A stretch of 64,000 bases of DNA from Candidatus Methanomethylicaceae archaeon (GTDB taxonomy: Archaea; Thermoproteota; Methanomethylicia; Methanomethylicales; Methanomethylicaceae). Location of the stretch: NCBI GenBank assembly GCA_026414165.1, contig JAOAJN010000001.1, positions 50,422 through 114,421 of the forward strand. The letters are read 5' to 3'. Position 1 is the first letter of the stretch; each line of letters opens with the position of its first letter. Positions 13,642 to 19,093 of the stretch are shown one piece after another. The notes beneath the pieces are model-generated. The model saw only the letters and a program-made list of their open reading frames with translations, was not told the origin of the DNA and made no database searches. The position numbers were made by a program, and so were the translations under genes.

Positions 13642-14433
13642 TTGGAAAGCGAAGTGATTGAAAAGCGTTCAGTTCCGGTATATTCTCTTGATGGAAGCAT
13701 TAAGGGCGATGTAGAGTTGCCCAAGGTATTTCTAGAAGAGGTTAGGTCAGACCTGATAAAGCGCGCATTCATCTCTTCCTTCACTGCCAAGATCCAACCC
13801 AAAGGACGAGATCCTATGGCTGGAAAGAGGACGAGTGCAGAAAGCTTGGGTGTAGGTCTTGATCTTGCCAGAGTTCCAAGGGTGAAGGGTGGCGGACCTG
13901 CTGCCTTTGTACCAAATGTGGTGGGTGGTAGACTGGCGTTTCCTCCAAGGCCTGAAAAGATCTTCCACGAACGAATAAATGACAAGGAGCGCGCACTTGC
14001 TCTTAAATCTGCCATAGCCGCCACAGGCATTAAAGATCTTGTGATACGTAGAGGACATATAATTAAAGAGGGCACTCGCCTTCCAATCGTAGTCTCTGAC
14101 GAGATAAAGAAATTAAAAAAAGCCTCTGAATTCAGAGAGTTTCTCCAGAAGCTTAACCTTTGGGAAGATGTCATGAGGGCGAAATGCGGAATAAAAGAAC
14201 GTCCAGGCAAAGGGAAATATAGGGGTAGGCGGTGGGTTAAGCCCAAGACCCTCTTACTGATTACTGACGAACTGAATCCTCCCGTAAGGTTGGCTGCCAG
14301 AAACTTCTCTGGTCTGGATTTTGCCGAGGTGACTTCCTTAAACATAGAGCGATTAGCCCCTGGAGGGCACCCGGGACGATTAACAATATGGACAGAATCT
14401 GCTTTGAAGAAACTCGAAAAGATATTCACATAA
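13642..14433 (+). CDS. rpl4: 50S ribosomal protein L4 (uL4)
   Basis: Archaeal L4 (L1e) similarity; operon position; TTG/GTG start. Confidence 0.9.
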   Translation: MESEVIEKRSVPVYSLDGSIKGDVELPKVFLEEVRSDLIKRAFISSFTAKIQPKGRDPMAGKRTSAESLGVGLDLARVPRVKGGGPAAFVPNVVGGRLAFPPRPEKIFHERINDKERALALKSAIAATGIKDLVIRRGHIIKEGTRLPIVVSDEIKKLKKASEFREFLQKLNLWEDVMRAKCGIKERPGKGKYRGRRWVKPKTLLLITDELNPPVRLAARNFSGLDFAEVTSLNIERLAPGGHPGRLTIWTESALKKLEKIFT

Positions 14434-15453: not shown

Positions 15454-15858
15454 ATGTCAAAAGAATTTACTTACAGGGGATATACGATATCTCAACTTGC
15501 TAATATGCCAATGGACGAGTTCATCAAACTGCTTCCAAGTAGACAGCGTAGATCTTTAATGAGGGGTCTTAACCCAGAACAGAGAACATTATTCGAAAAG
15601 ATACGCAAAGCAAAACTCTTGGCTGCCAAGGGTAAGAAGGTGGTGATCAGAACTCACTGCCGGGACATGATCATCCTCCCAGAGATGGTCGGTCTGACGA
15701 TATCTGTGCATAACGGTAAGGAGTTCGTTCCTGTTGAGATCCTCCCAGAGATGGTCGGTCACTACCTAGGCGAATTCGCAATAACCACTGCAAAAGTCAC
15801 ACATGGCGCTCCTGGTCTAAAGGCTACCCGAAGCTCAATGTTCGTACCTCTTAAATAA
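15454..15858 (+). CDS. rps19: 30S ribosomal protein S19 (uS19)
   Basis: [18 protein letters not shown]...[14 protein letters not shown] canonical S19. Confidence 0.9.
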
Positions 15859-15877
15859 CATCCCTTTCCAATTTTTT

Positions 15878-15889
15878 AAGCCATCTTTA
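15878..15889 (+). terminator. oligo-T tract (caattttttaag) after rps19
   Basis: Archaeal terminators are T-runs; located 20 bp past the S19 stop. Confidence 0.25.
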
Positions 15890-15986
15890 GTTTACAAAAA
15901 GCGGACCATAATGGCACGAATTAATAACCAGTTTACAATATCGTGCCAAGCCCCCTTCGATTTGACTTAGTCACTTAGACAGATAT

Positions 15987-16055
15987 TTGCAAGAATTCAA
16001 TTTCTTACCCGAATCTGTAATAATCACTTCTATTTTCTTGCAAGAATTCAATTCC
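15987..16055 (+). promoter_or_regulatory. paired 18-bp direct repeats (ttgcaagaattcaatt[t/c]c), each made of two adjacent 6-bp palindromes (TTGCAA, GAATTC), 51 bp apart; candidate operator
   Basis: 17/18 identical copies at 15987-16004 and 16038-16055, directly upstream of a TATA-like box and the inserted cassette. Confidence 0.35.
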
Positions 16056-16062
16056 TTCAATC

Positions 16063-16070
16063 TTAAATAA
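16063..16070 (+). promoter_or_regulatory. TATA-like box (ttaaataa) 31-38 bp upstream of the 16101 ATG
   Basis: Sequence and spacing consistent with an archaeal promoter. Confidence 0.3.
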
Positions 16071-16100
16071 ACGCGCATTACAACTTTTCCCCGATCTGTT

Positions 16101-16694
16101 ATGCAACGTAGAACTTTGGTAATGCTTGCCTTCATAACCATGTTCTGCCTGACAATTTACTCTGGTGCTTACGCCAGCTCACTTTCAAAAGCGGAGATCG
16201 TACACTTCTGGGTGGCTGTACCCGCTGGCAATGTGACTGAACCAAAAACCTTACGTGGTGCTGGTCCACCAATAAACATGGCCCCCATCATAATAGACTT
16301 AGACACAAGAGGCTTACCTAAGAACCTGCTCAACCCAAATGTGGAAGCCATCTCTACCCATTGGATCTACAATTTGGATAAAAGACCGTACAAACTCGGT
16401 CTAGATCTTATTAATACCCATTTTCCGGTGGAATGGGAAGTAAGATCCGAATGGCCTTACGATCCAACCACCCATACGTTCACCAAACCTTTACCACCTG
16501 GTCAAAGAATTCCCGGTCTCTCAATCGACTGGATATTCAAAATACCTGCGTATTATATGGATGAGCAAGTAATCTATGATGGTGGTTTACTTATCTTTGA
16601 CGCTGATTCTGGTCAACCACTTACATTCATCCCAATAAAGATCGTTAGAGGTGGAATCATTCCATCTCAAGGAGGTTTGGGAAGTTGTCATTAG
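16101..16694 (+). CDS. secreted protein of unknown function (N-terminal signal peptide, Trp/His-rich, C-terminal GSCH)
   Basis: MQRRTLVMLAFITMFCLTIYSGAYA signal peptide; no known motif; first gene of the cassette inserted between S19 and L22. Confidence 0.6.
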   Translation: MQRRTLVMLAFITMFCLTIYSGAYASSLSKAEIVHFWVAVPAGNVTEPKTLRGAGPPINMAPIIIDLDTRGLPKNLLNPNVEAISTHWIYNLDKRPYKLGLDLINTHFPVEWEVRSEWPYDPTTHTFTKPLPPGQRIPGLSIDWIFKIPAYYMDEQVIYDGGLLIFDADSGQPLTFIPIKIVRGGIIPSQGGLGSCH

Positions 16695-17587
16695 AGCGCA
16701 AAAAGCAAACACTCTTCAAAAACAAGTATCGTTATCTCTCTTGGATCCTTGGATTTCTAATCTTTGTGGGACCATTTTCACTACTTACCCGCTTAGTCTA
16801 CATGGTTATTGGCAATATATCCTTGCCAGATCTTCACACAATCTGCCTCAGAATGCCGCTCGATTGGGTTTTTTCTGGTAGGGTTTACAACCTGCTGGGA
16901 TCTCCAATAATGACTAGCTTTACCATAATCGTTCTAATCACCACACTCTTGGTTGGACCCATGTTCTGCGGATGGCTGTGCCCGGTAGGTGCTGTAAGCG
17001 AAGCTTTAAGCCGATTAGCACCGATACCGAAAAAATTCAGGCTTCACATCCAAGACCCTAATATTACGCGAAACTTGAGATTTGGTTTTCTTACGGGCTT
17101 CATCTTAGTCTCAATCCTAGTGGGACTTGGATATGCTTATGTAGGAAGTATTTGCTGCAGGTACTGCACGTCATCAGTCTTGCAGAACATTGTTAACGGT
17201 CTATTTGGCAATTCCTTGGCTTTTGAGTACTGGCATACTGGCTCGATTCTGACGCTCATTTTTTGGCTATTGGTGGGTGGCATATTCACGTTTGGTGGAA
17301 GAGGGTGGTGCATACTATTCTGTCCACTGGGGGCGGTATCGGGACTGATTCATGCCATAGGTGCCAAGATTGGATTTTATAGGACCGTGAAAAACGAAGA
17401 AGATTGCAAGAACTGCGGATCCTGTTCGGATATTTGTCCGATGTGGGCCATAGGTTCTGATAATTCCATAGAACGAACTCTTTGTATAAACTGCAAGGAA
17501 TGCATAAACAGATGCCCATCCCGTGCTTTTAGTATGATATGGGGGAGGCGAAAGAAAAGTGATTATGTCGATAATGAGGCATCTTAA
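16685..17587 (+). CDS. NapH/MauN-family membrane-bound polyferredoxin (2x CxxxCP transmembrane motifs plus two 4Fe-4S ferredoxin motifs)
   Basis: CGWLCPVGA and CILFCPLGA motifs, C-terminal CKNCGSCSDICP and CINCKECINRCP; multiple TM segments; true start probably an internal Met. Confidence 0.7.
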   Translation: MSLERKKQTLFKNKYRYLSWILGFLIFVGPFSLLTRLVYMVIGNISLPDLHTICLRMPLDWVFSGRVYNLLGSPIMTSFTIIVLITTLLVGPMFCGWLCPVGAVSEALSRLAPIPKKFRLHIQDPNITRNLRFGFLTGFILVSILVGLGYAYVGSICCRYCTSSVLQNIVNGLFGNSLAFEYWHTGSILTLIFWLLVGGIFTFGGRGWCILFCPLGAVSGLIHAIGAKIGFYRTVKNEEDCKNCGSCSDICPMWAIGSDNSIERTLCINCKECINRCPSRAFSMIWGRRKKSDYVDNEAS

Positions 17588-17780
17588 AAAATTTAAGGCT
17601 TATTTTACCTTTATAATCTCGGCTTCCAGTATACCTACATTTTACCTTTTACAAATTTGCAGAACATCATGTTTAGCATGCCCGTTAGTAGGGATATGTG
17701 TGATTGCTTTTCCTTTAGTTTTTGGCATCGCAGCCCTCATGAAAATTGCCAAAAAAGCTCAGTCTTTGTTTAAAAAATAA
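17559..17780 (+). CDS. small hydrophobic membrane peptide (CLACP motif), uncertain
   Basis: 73-aa ORF overlapping the 3' end of the NapH-like gene; 2 predicted TM segments, Lys-rich C-terminus. Confidence 0.3.
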   Translation: MIMSIMRHLKKFKAYFTFIISASSIPTFYLLQICRTSCLACPLVGICVIAFPLVFGIAALMKIAKKAQSLFKK

Positions 17781-18008
17781 ACACAAGTATTCTGCCGCGT
17801 CCTCCTCTAAACATTTTCAGATAAAACACCACTAAAACTGCGCCTTTTATATGCTACTTGGCACATCAATAATAACACTTTCCAATAATAAAGTAAACGA
17901 TAACCGATTTTTCATATATACACTCCAGACATTGTAAAAAACTTTTTATATACCTCCCAAGTTTTAAACTTGCGATTCAACATATCATGATAAATTGGAA
18001 GTGGTATA

Positions 18009-18485
18009 ATGCCCGAATGGGGATATTCAACACTGGAGTATGACCCTGACAAAATGGCTAGGGCTAGTGGGCGAGACCTCCGCATTTCTCCAAAGGAAGC
18101 CAGAGAGATATGCGCCGCAATAAGGCACATGCGCTTAGAAGATGCCATTGAATATCTTAAGCACGTAATCGAGAAAAAGGAGGGAGTCCCCTACCGTAGA
18201 TTCAAAAGAAACGTCCCCCATCACTCCGAGATCGCTAACAGATTTGGAATCCCATCGGGCAGATATCCCATTAAAGCTTGCTCTGAGATTCTAAAAGTCT
18301 TGGAAAATGCAAAGGCAAACGCAGAGAACAAAGGTCTAGACATAGAGAGTTTGCGGGTACGCCACGCCTGCGCACAGGCTGCTATGAAGATCAGAAACTA
18401 CATCCCGCGCGCTTTCGGAAGGGCTACGCCCTTCTTTCATCCCCTGACACATGTTGAGATCGTAGTTGAGGAGGTAGGCGCATGA
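18009..18485 (+). CDS. rpl22: 50S ribosomal protein L22 (uL22)
   Basis: Archaeal L22 similarity; resumes the r-protein operon order L22-S3-L29. Confidence 0.9.
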   Translation: MPEWGYSTLEYDPDKMARASGRDLRISPKEAREICAAIRHMRLEDAIEYLKHVIEKKEGVPYRRFKRNVPHHSEIANRFGIPSGRYPIKACSEILKVLENAKANAENKGLDIESLRVRHACAQAAMKIRNYIPRAFGRATPFFHPLTHVEIVVEEVGA

Positions 18486-19093
18486 GTATAGCAAGATTCT
18501 TTATCAATAAATCATCAAAAAACATGATAATTGACAATTATCTCCGCAACGAGCTCAAGAGGGCTGGCTATGCTGGTGTAGAATTTCAGAAGACTCCCCT
18601 TGGTAACAGAGTTGTAATATACGCCGAAAGACCTGGCATGGTCATAGGTCGCCAGGGTGCCACCATAAGGGAACTGGCCCATGTGATCGAAACAAAATAC
18701 GGACTCGAGAACCCTCAGATAGCAGTAGTCCCAGTCCAAAATCCCGAACTAAACGCCAGAATAATGGCAAGCAGGGTGGCTTCTGCTCTAGAGAGGGGCA
18801 TACATTTCAGGAGGGCTGCCTTCGTTGCACTAAGACAGATAATGGAAGCTGGCGCACGTGGGGCGGAAATAGTCATTCGTGGAAAACTCTCAACAGAGCG
18901 CTCTAGATATGAGAAATTCAGATCAGGGGCTATATTGAAGGCCGGAGAACCGAGAAAATATGCCGTGGACAGGGCCGTAACGAGCGTACTACTCAAGCCC
19001 GGAGTCTTTGGGATTCAAGTGAGCATATACTTACCCGTTAAGACCGTCGACGACATCTCCATAGTTGAAGTTACACAGCAGGCAGCTGGGTGA
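18482..19093 (+). CDS. rps3: 30S ribosomal protein S3 (uS3)
   Basis: KH domain, GRQGATIREL; 203 aa; overlaps the L22 stop. Confidence 0.9.
   Translation: MSIARFFINKSSKNMIIDNYLRNELKRAGYAGVEFQKTPLGNRVVIYAERPGMVIGRQGATIRELAHVIETKYGLENPQIAVVPVQNPELNARIMASRVASALERGIHFRRAAFVALRQIMEAGARGAEIVIRGKLSTERSRYEKFRSGAILKAGEPRKYAVDRAVTSVLLKPGVFGIQVSIYLPVKTVDDISIVEVTQQAAG

Follow-up and report, generated by a model that had tools for sequence, protein, structure and literature searches.

What are three genes doing between rps19 and rpl22 of a Candidatus Methanomethylicaceae archaeon, and do they belong to the ribosomal-protein genes around them? The question was addressed in a stretch of 64,000 nucleotides (64 kb) from contig JAOAJN010000001.1, called the window below; positions are those of the window, and all its features named here lie on the plus strand. 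The 2.15 kb between rps19 and rpl22 is occupied by three genuine conserved genes, open reading frames (ORFs) 1 to 3. They are an autonomous unit, namely a conserved three-subunit membrane set of Fe-S and Cys proteins with a portable promoter and operator. As a general description, an autonomous transmembrane redox module placed at a native operon boundary is likely, and this uncharacterised complex matters more than its ribosomal location.

ORF1 (16101-16694) encodes a protein of 197 aa, with a helix, an immunoglobulin (Ig)-like beta-sandwich and a tail, as read from its homologues and its structure model. ORF2 (16685-17587, 300 aa) is a NapH/NosR-like Fer4_5 protein identified by Pfam, NCBIfam and alignment, and ORF3 (17559-17780, 73 aa, with an alternative ATG at 17565) is a small membrane protein with four Cys, supported by conservation and by natural fusions. 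The three genes are co-oriented, with overlaps of 10 nt (ORF1/ORF2) and 29 nt (ORF2/ORF3). The original prediction, made from the sequence of this stretch, had placed three genes with repeats and a TATA-like box of their own between rps19 and rpl22, and gene order, Pfam matches, conservation and a repeat search all bore this out.

Wherever a fetched locus had room, ORF2 came directly after ORF1 in essentially every case, and ORF3 came next after ORF2 in nearly all archaeal loci. The trio was conserved as a unit in about 30 loci, in keeping with the earlier proposal of an uncharacterised module that would move electrons outward. The arrangement was kept even in distant relatives, including Thermincola (ORF1 31% identity), Candidatus (Ca.) Pyrohabitans and a GC-rich bacterial contig. 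Virtually all of the Methanomethylicia sampled had the cassette, among them the two cultured Methanosuratincola strains (L021 and L026); outside this class it occurred sporadically, namely in Bathyarchaeia, Ca. Pyrohabitans, Thermincola and further bacteria.

At least seven genomic contexts of the cassette were observed. The commonest was between PadR/LysX and aconitase-like genes, and no such LysX/aconitase neighbourhood was found in the window. Others were after NrdD/NrdG, after a PKD protein, beside fumarase, beside flavodoxin and a DNA methylase, beside an ECF-S component and a pyrophosphatase, and inside the his genes of Ca. Pyrohabitans, while in one bacterial locus a TonB-dependent receptor and a YHS protein lay immediately upstream. 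In the Ca. Pyrohabitans locus (L119:4969-9004) the three genes stood among His_biosynth, GATase and HisG, one more example of its lying within a cluster of housekeeping genes. The placement between rps19 and rpl22 was limited to the window and five relatives (L006, L007, L010, L020 and L023; ORF1 74-86% identity), which share the site and strand and bear no annotated function there. The cassette lay elsewhere in L011 and L012 (ORF1 77-79% identity) and in all relatives at 66% identity or below. Because most relatives carry it elsewhere, nothing links the cassette functionally to the ribosomal genes, and the significance once attached to this location was not sustained. Its GC content (0.41-0.45) is near that of the flanks, and the similarity of ORF1 follows taxonomy in broad terms; neither observation points to recent transfer, and a recent foreign origin was rejected on these grounds.

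Two exact copies of AGAATTCAATTYC, 51 nt apart, were found upstream of ORF1, with no third copy in the window even when one mismatch was tolerated. The distal copy (15992-16004) is a palindromic operator-like element (AGAATTCAATTTC), and the proximal one (16043-16055, AGAATTCAATTCC), also operator-like, stands 6 nt 5' of the TATA box; both were kept in five loci with the cassette at the ribosomal-protein site. The TATA-like CTTAAATAA (16062-16070) lies about 31-39 nt 5' of the ORF1 ATG, in the invariant block TCTTAAAT of the five-locus alignment, and from this distance the ORF1 transcript would be near-leaderless. Two operator copies, as in the window, were also present in the Methanosuratincola loci. 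The operator core [TG]CAATTCC, part of the palindrome GGAATTcAATTCC, occurred 45-90 nt 5' of ORF1 in all 22 of the 22 Methanomethylicia loci, with a background frequency of 0.13 per kb, and was missing from six loci outside Methanomethylicia. The core sits just 5' of an A/T box regardless of genomic context, and TATA-like A/T boxes were found at equal offset upstream of ORF1 in the other contexts. Since operator and A/T box precede ORF1 whatever the context, the cassette appears to have its own regulated promoter.

The divergent neighbour of the cassette was a PadR-family gene in 15 loci, and a PadR gene was met again in the bacterial locus L118; no PadR homologue was found in the window. The divergently encoded PadR-type protein is probably a dedicated repressor or activator of the cassette. 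In PadR-linked loci (L001:5883-5930, L021:6857-6900 and similar ones) a second conserved palindrome, ATATATTTGAnTCCGATATATGA, lies beside the PadR start; this element differs from the GGAATTcAATTCC operator and could be the operator of PadR itself.

Whether an operon is broken by the cassette was judged from the junction itself. The upstream L3-L4-L23-L2-S19 unit ends with rps19 (15454-15858; Pfam Ribosomal_S19, E=1e-33), and just past its stop a run of six T (15872-15877) would act as an archaeal terminator-like signal, similar T-runs being present in L038-L042. The downstream L22-S3-L29 unit opens with rpl22 (18009-18485; Ribosomal_L22, E=1e-30), which is preceded by the putative promoter block AAAAAACTTTTTATATACCTCCCAAGTTTTAAACTTGCGATTCA (17936-17979, TATA at 17943-17952), near-identical in L006 and L023 and present in L043 too. 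A metagenome scan with S19 as query recovered 80 loci. In the closest uninterrupted relatives (L038-L042, S19 81-86% identical) the S19-L22 spacer was 108-130 nt and contained a T-run directly after rps19 and the block AAAAACTTTTTATAgCCCTCCCAAGTTTTAAACTTGCGATTCA, the counterpart of window positions 17936-17979. No rpl22 was found downstream of rps19 in 49 archaeal loci (among L044-L117; S19 66-77% identical; 1.5-4 kb available), where the L3-L4-L23-L2-S19 block ends at S19 and unrelated genes come next, often on the opposite strand. Several other loci had unrelated genes between rps19 and rpl22, or an inverted rpl22-rps3.

Because a spacer promoter occurs in uninterrupted relatives and the two genes are repeatedly separated, the rps19/rpl22 junction is best read as a native boundary that bears a promoter and at which breaks have recurred. 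The cassette would have landed between the rps19 terminator region and a pre-existing rpl22 promoter, and in one Methanomethyliaceae subclade it separates what appear to be two transcription units rather than splitting one. The earlier claim that the conserved S19-L22 order is interrupted was correct, but not its corollary that one obligate operon is broken, given the native promoter-bearing spacer and the 49 loci without rpl22. The flanks keep the canonical order of the archaeal S10/spc-type cluster, L3-L4-L23-L2-S19 and then L22-S3-L29, whereas the step from S19 to L22 is here a promoter-containing boundary and a recurrent insertion or separation site in related archaea. In L043 (3440-4168; S19 83% identical) a 730 nt insert lies between rps19 and the rpl22 promoter block; no convincing ORF and no Rfam match were found in it, and it could represent either an RNA that lacks annotation or an insertion, since decayed, at this hotspot.

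ORF2 matched Pfam Fer4_5 (PF12801) with 56.1 bits against a gathering threshold of 22, in two stretches, and Fer4 was matched as well. The motifs CGWLCP and CILFCP (CxxxCP) and the two ferredoxin motifs CKNCGSCSDICP and CINCKECINRCP (CxxCxxCxxxCP) were all invariant in 39 homologues, which agrees with the predicted NapH-type membrane polyferredoxin carrying two CxxxCP and two 4Fe-4S motifs. The invariant Cys are C95/C99 and C209/C213 of the CxxxCP motifs, C158/C161 and the eight ferredoxin Cys; for C54 and C157, conservation is 90% or more. Net charges along the chain run +5, 0, +4, 0, +3, and by the positive-inside rule both termini of this four-helix transmembrane (TM) protein would be inside. 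The ferredoxin domain and both CxxxCP motifs are accordingly predicted to be cytoplasmic, and C54 (loop 1) and CCxxC (C157/158/161, loop 3) to face outward. In some homologues (P0191, P0196, P0199 and P0204; columns 160-185 of alignment A4) an insertion of about 19 residues, PVLGACCAPGTKSLAETLG, adds a vicinal CC to the predicted outer loop, immediately ahead of CCxxC. No PDB template was found for the membrane part. About 74 close homologues were collected; the score then fell from 158 to 57 bits ahead of the generic NapH-like proteins, and because of this sharp drop ORF2 is regarded as a distinct subfamily.

ORF1 had 47 homologues, all annotated as "hypothetical", with one identical (from a Candidatus Methanomethyliaceae metagenome-assembled genome, MAG) and 46 at 43-86% identity, nearly all from Methanomethylicia. 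Neither Pfam nor NCBIfam gave a match, so the prediction of a protein in no recognizable family, ending in GSCH, was upheld; FMN-binding (flavin mononucleotide), flavinylation or copper-site families, which had been suggested for a check, were not found in these databases either. The two outcomes named at the start as refuting the prediction thus did not arise: relatives sharing the site carry no functional annotation, and ORF1 matches no well-known family. The sequence SGAY that closes the N-terminal helix was considered as an ApbE target and rejected, since it differs from the target motif and is not conserved. The AlphaFold2 (AF2) model, with a predicted local distance difference test (pLDDT) score of 89.6, showed the N-terminal helix, the beta-sandwich and a disordered tail at residues 188-197, and structure comparison returned generic beta-sandwich fold matches only. 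A family profile recovered only 92 clusters from 1.84 billion representatives, so the family is rare, and only chance matches were obtained with it in PDB. Weak signals for FixG_C and 2r39 were noted for the family: FixG_C was the top Pfam family among distant relatives (3 of 51, best E=5e-4), and the window ORF1 itself had no FixG_C match in Pfam.

Within or just past the helix of ORF1, T18, Y24 and E32 are at least 90% conserved, and in the family at large an aromatic-basic motif (e.g. AGYYRE), which is not a signal-peptidase site, closes the helix. A retained membrane anchor is therefore likelier than free secretion, which had been proposed at first; the Trp/His-rich character ascribed to the protein was marginal only (Trp 2.5%, His 2.5%). 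Cys made up 6.7% of the tails of 96 family members versus 0.42% of the protein body. Cys or at least two His were present in 69 of these tails and a vicinal CC in 42, while others end in CH, HHH or HxHxH, and the tail sequences vary. ORF1 would thus be a beta-sandwich anchored by its N-terminus, from which a flexible Cys/His tail extends on the outside of the cell. In Thermincola (L036:1264-4979) and on a metagenome contig (L118:766-3843) the ORF1-family gene adjoins DUF4418 and a MacB-type ATP-binding cassette (ABC) transporter (FtsX and ABC_tran). L118 has no Fer4_5 gene and carries PadR and a NifX-like gene upstream, and L036 also has a YVTN beta-propeller lipoprotein and a two-component system. 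These two loci suggest that the Ig-like protein could work with an ABC extruder too.

In the translations of related loci, residues C34, C38, C41, P42, G45 and C47 of ORF3 were invariant, and the motif C-x3-C-x2-CP-x4-C was conserved in nearly all loci, which confirmed the overlapping 73-aa membrane peptide proposed earlier. No family was assigned to ORF3; a word-indexed homologue search with it returned nothing, and in NCBIfam a putative disulfide oxidoreductase was matched weakly (E=0.012). Five proteins of 363-368 aa (P0166, P0168, P0170, P0172 and P0174) are natural fusions in which ORF3 continues the C-terminal end of ORF2, and one of them comes from the contig of a Bathyarchaeia MAG (L032); because some archaea fuse the two, ORF3 is regarded as belonging to the ORF2 complex as a subunit. 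Its two termini are strongly basic, and a hydrophobic stretch of 37 residues holds the Cys4 motif. The simplest reading, an uncertain one, would be a hairpin with the Cys4 motif near the outer face. An AF2 model was also made of a natural fusion; one misaligned noise row was contained in the multiple sequence alignment behind it, the ORF3 part had pLDDT below 50, and docking of the Cys4 hairpin was not readable.

Three known systems share parts with the cassette. ORF2 aligned over its full length with the NapH/MauN models, having four TM helices, two CxxxCP and two C-terminal [4Fe-4S] motifs in common with them. The scores, however, stayed below the curated cut-offs (TIGR02163, 73.2 versus 213.05 bits; PRK09477, 70.3 versus 234 bits), and identity to NapH and to NosR was 24-27% (tblastn, plasmids). 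ORF2 further differs from NapH/MauN in the extra conserved Cys (C54, CCxxC) of its predicted outer loops and in its partners, an Ig-like protein and a Cys4 peptide. No NapG/NapAB(C) or mau genes were found in the window or in about 30 related loci. To our knowledge respiratory quinones have not been reported for the host class, and the host is probably without quinones.

NapH-like proteins are used as modules with extracytosolic oxidoreductases, and NosR/NirI and PceC/RdhC are flavinylated NapH-like systems (PMC8238504). They share with ORF2 the homologous Fer4_5 membrane core as a modular device for transmembrane electron transfer (PMC8238504), but ORF2 scored 31.7 bits on the NosR model, with a cut-off of 1000. 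FMN_bind was not detected by Pfam in the three proteins, and among the neighbours there was no FMN-binding domain, ApbE or reductase gene.

The third system is the cupric reductase CcoG/FixG of Rhodobacter capsulatus, on which Marckmann et al. reportedly published in 2019. CcoG is described as a polyferredoxin of the membrane that reduces Cu(II) and has two [4Fe-4S] clusters, Cu sites and, in the periplasm, an Ig-like domain without an assigned role (PMC7558416). The cassette has a closely similar parts list: a Fer4_5-type polyferredoxin with two [4Fe-4S], Cys sites and a TM-anchored extracytoplasmic Ig-like domain. In contrast to CcoG, the Ig-like part is encoded by a separate upstream gene instead of a C-terminal fusion, ORF2 ends after the ferredoxin domain, and the extra subunit ORF3 is present. 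CcoG was not among the best 25 NCBIfam matches of ORF2, FixG was not among the matches listed in the plasmid tblastn search (NapH and NosR were returned), and no cco/fix gene context was seen near the cassette.

The explanation we favour as a whole, an autonomous cassette for ferredoxin-driven delivery to a metal-handling Cys/His site on the outer face, has somewhat better than even chances of being right. Reduced ferredoxin or another cytoplasmic donor would feed the 2x[4Fe-4S] domain of ORF2, and electrons would cross the membrane through the Cys of ORF2 and ORF3 to the outer-face site. There the tail of ORF1 would present or receive a thiophilic metal ion, in reductive acquisition or detoxification, or would handle a disulfide. 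Metal reduction at this face would resemble the Cu(II) reduction ascribed to CcoG (PMC7558416). The metal-specific role is possible yet doubtful; weak signals on its side are the FixG_C matches (3 of 51), the TonB receptor and YHS neighbours, and the MacB-type ABC transporter with DUF4418 in two bacterial loci. It is rather unlikely that ORF1-ORF2-ORF3 represent an undescribed family of ferredoxin-driven outward metal reductase and metallochaperone complexes, in which a surface Cys cluster would get the electrons, and a thiophilic metal (Cu, or Ni/Co/Fe for methanogen cofactors) would be passed to the tethered Ig-like protein by way of the ORF1 tail.

Several points weigh against this explanation. 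The substrate, the metal and the donor are putative, and the promoter, terminator and operator roles are read from conservation of sequence. ORF2 is nearer to NapH/NosR than to CcoG, and the window ORF1 is without a FixG_C match. About one quarter of the ORF1 family members have no Cys/His tail. The topology of ORF3 is ambiguous, with a single long hydrophobic stretch and pLDDT below 50 in the fusion model, and the neighbours are mostly housekeeping genes which give no consistent functional clue.

The same Cys could serve a transmembrane thiol-disulfide reductase analogous to DsbD/CcdA, in which Fe-S electrons would reduce Cys pairs of ORF2 and ORF3 and so keep ORF1 or envelope Cys reduced. 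Conserved Cys are numerous in the parts predicted to lie on or close to the outer face (C54, CCxxC and the Cys4 motif of ORF3), a vicinal CC occurs in the ORF1-family tails as counted above, and the weak NCBIfam match of ORF3 points the same way. This reading is nevertheless unlikely: His-only tails (HGGHHH, HESHESHETHEKK) in many distant members fit metal binding better, and the cassette lacks a thioredoxin-fold or DsbD Pfam domain, with no match to PF02683 in the three proteins at E<=1. A respiratory conduit, with a NapH-like quinol dehydrogenase passing electrons to an extracytoplasmic reductase or acceptor as in the original prediction, is quite improbable. It would agree with the full-length match of ORF2 to NapH/MauN and with a homologue in Thermincola, a genus linked to extracellular electron transfer. 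Pairing of modular NapH-like proteins with extracytosolic oxidoreductases is a precedent for it as well (PMC8238504). Yet terminal reductase, NapG, cytochrome and FMN-binding genes are absent from all of the about 30 loci, ORF1 belongs to no recognisable cofactor-binding family, and the host class, Methanomethylicia, consists of methyl-reducing methanogens (PMC12244365). The functional outline of the original prediction is broadly reasonable, but the quinol-oxidizing role assigned to ORF2 was not supported, with no nap genes nearby, a score (73.2 bits) far under the NapH cut-off (213.05) and a ferredoxin domain predicted to be cytoplasmic.

ORF2 is about equally similar to NosR/NirI and NapH, and a dedicated operator and PadR show tight coupling to the cassette, which would suit a NosR-like membrane sensor or maturation factor that senses envelope redox or metal, or maintains another enzyme, with no substrate turnover. 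Such a role is highly improbable, because DNA-binding or signalling output domains are absent, a client enzyme gene is not consistently nearby, and the NosR-defining FMN-binding domain was not found by Pfam. A functional tie to ribosome biogenesis or translation, with deliberate co-expression of the cassette and the ribosomal proteins, could appeal to the same position and strand in six loci (the window and its five relatives). It is hardly tenable and largely refuted by synteny: promoter and operator belong to the cassette itself, uninterrupted relatives already possess the rpl22 promoter, and the contexts of the cassette are unrelated ones in two loci at 77-79% ORF1 identity and in every relative at 66% or below.

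Of the other genes in the flanks, L3 (12628-13638), L4 (13642-14433), L23 (14388-14705) and L2 (14716-15438) stand upstream in the ORF list, and S3 (18482-19093) is followed by L29 onward. The listed L23 start (14388) overlaps the L4 end by 46 nt (14388-14433); because relatives annotate a shorter L23 (86-90 aa versus 105 aa in the window), its true start is probably further downstream. An Rfam scan of 15700-18200 gave no credible match, and PADLOC defence models matched none of the three proteins (0 families). No published description of this cassette was found in literature searches.

For the ribosomal-protein genes, the junction means that co-transcription with them should not be presumed for genes lying between rps19 and rpl22, and that in these lineages S19 and L22 are commonly not neighbours, although their adjacency is supposed to be universal. 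Electron transfer across membranes by Fer4_5 (NapH-like) proteins is widespread but structurally unsolved, and the core of these proteins is here paired with two unannotated partners and a portable operator. The cultured Methanosuratincola strains carry the module, which makes it experimentally testable, and it may bear on metal acquisition or detoxification, or on envelope reduction, in methanogens. If the reading as a metal reductase and metallochaperone is true, no dedicated membrane metal reductase would have been described in archaea before this one, and the enigmatic Ig-like domain found in CcoG-type proteins would gain a role.

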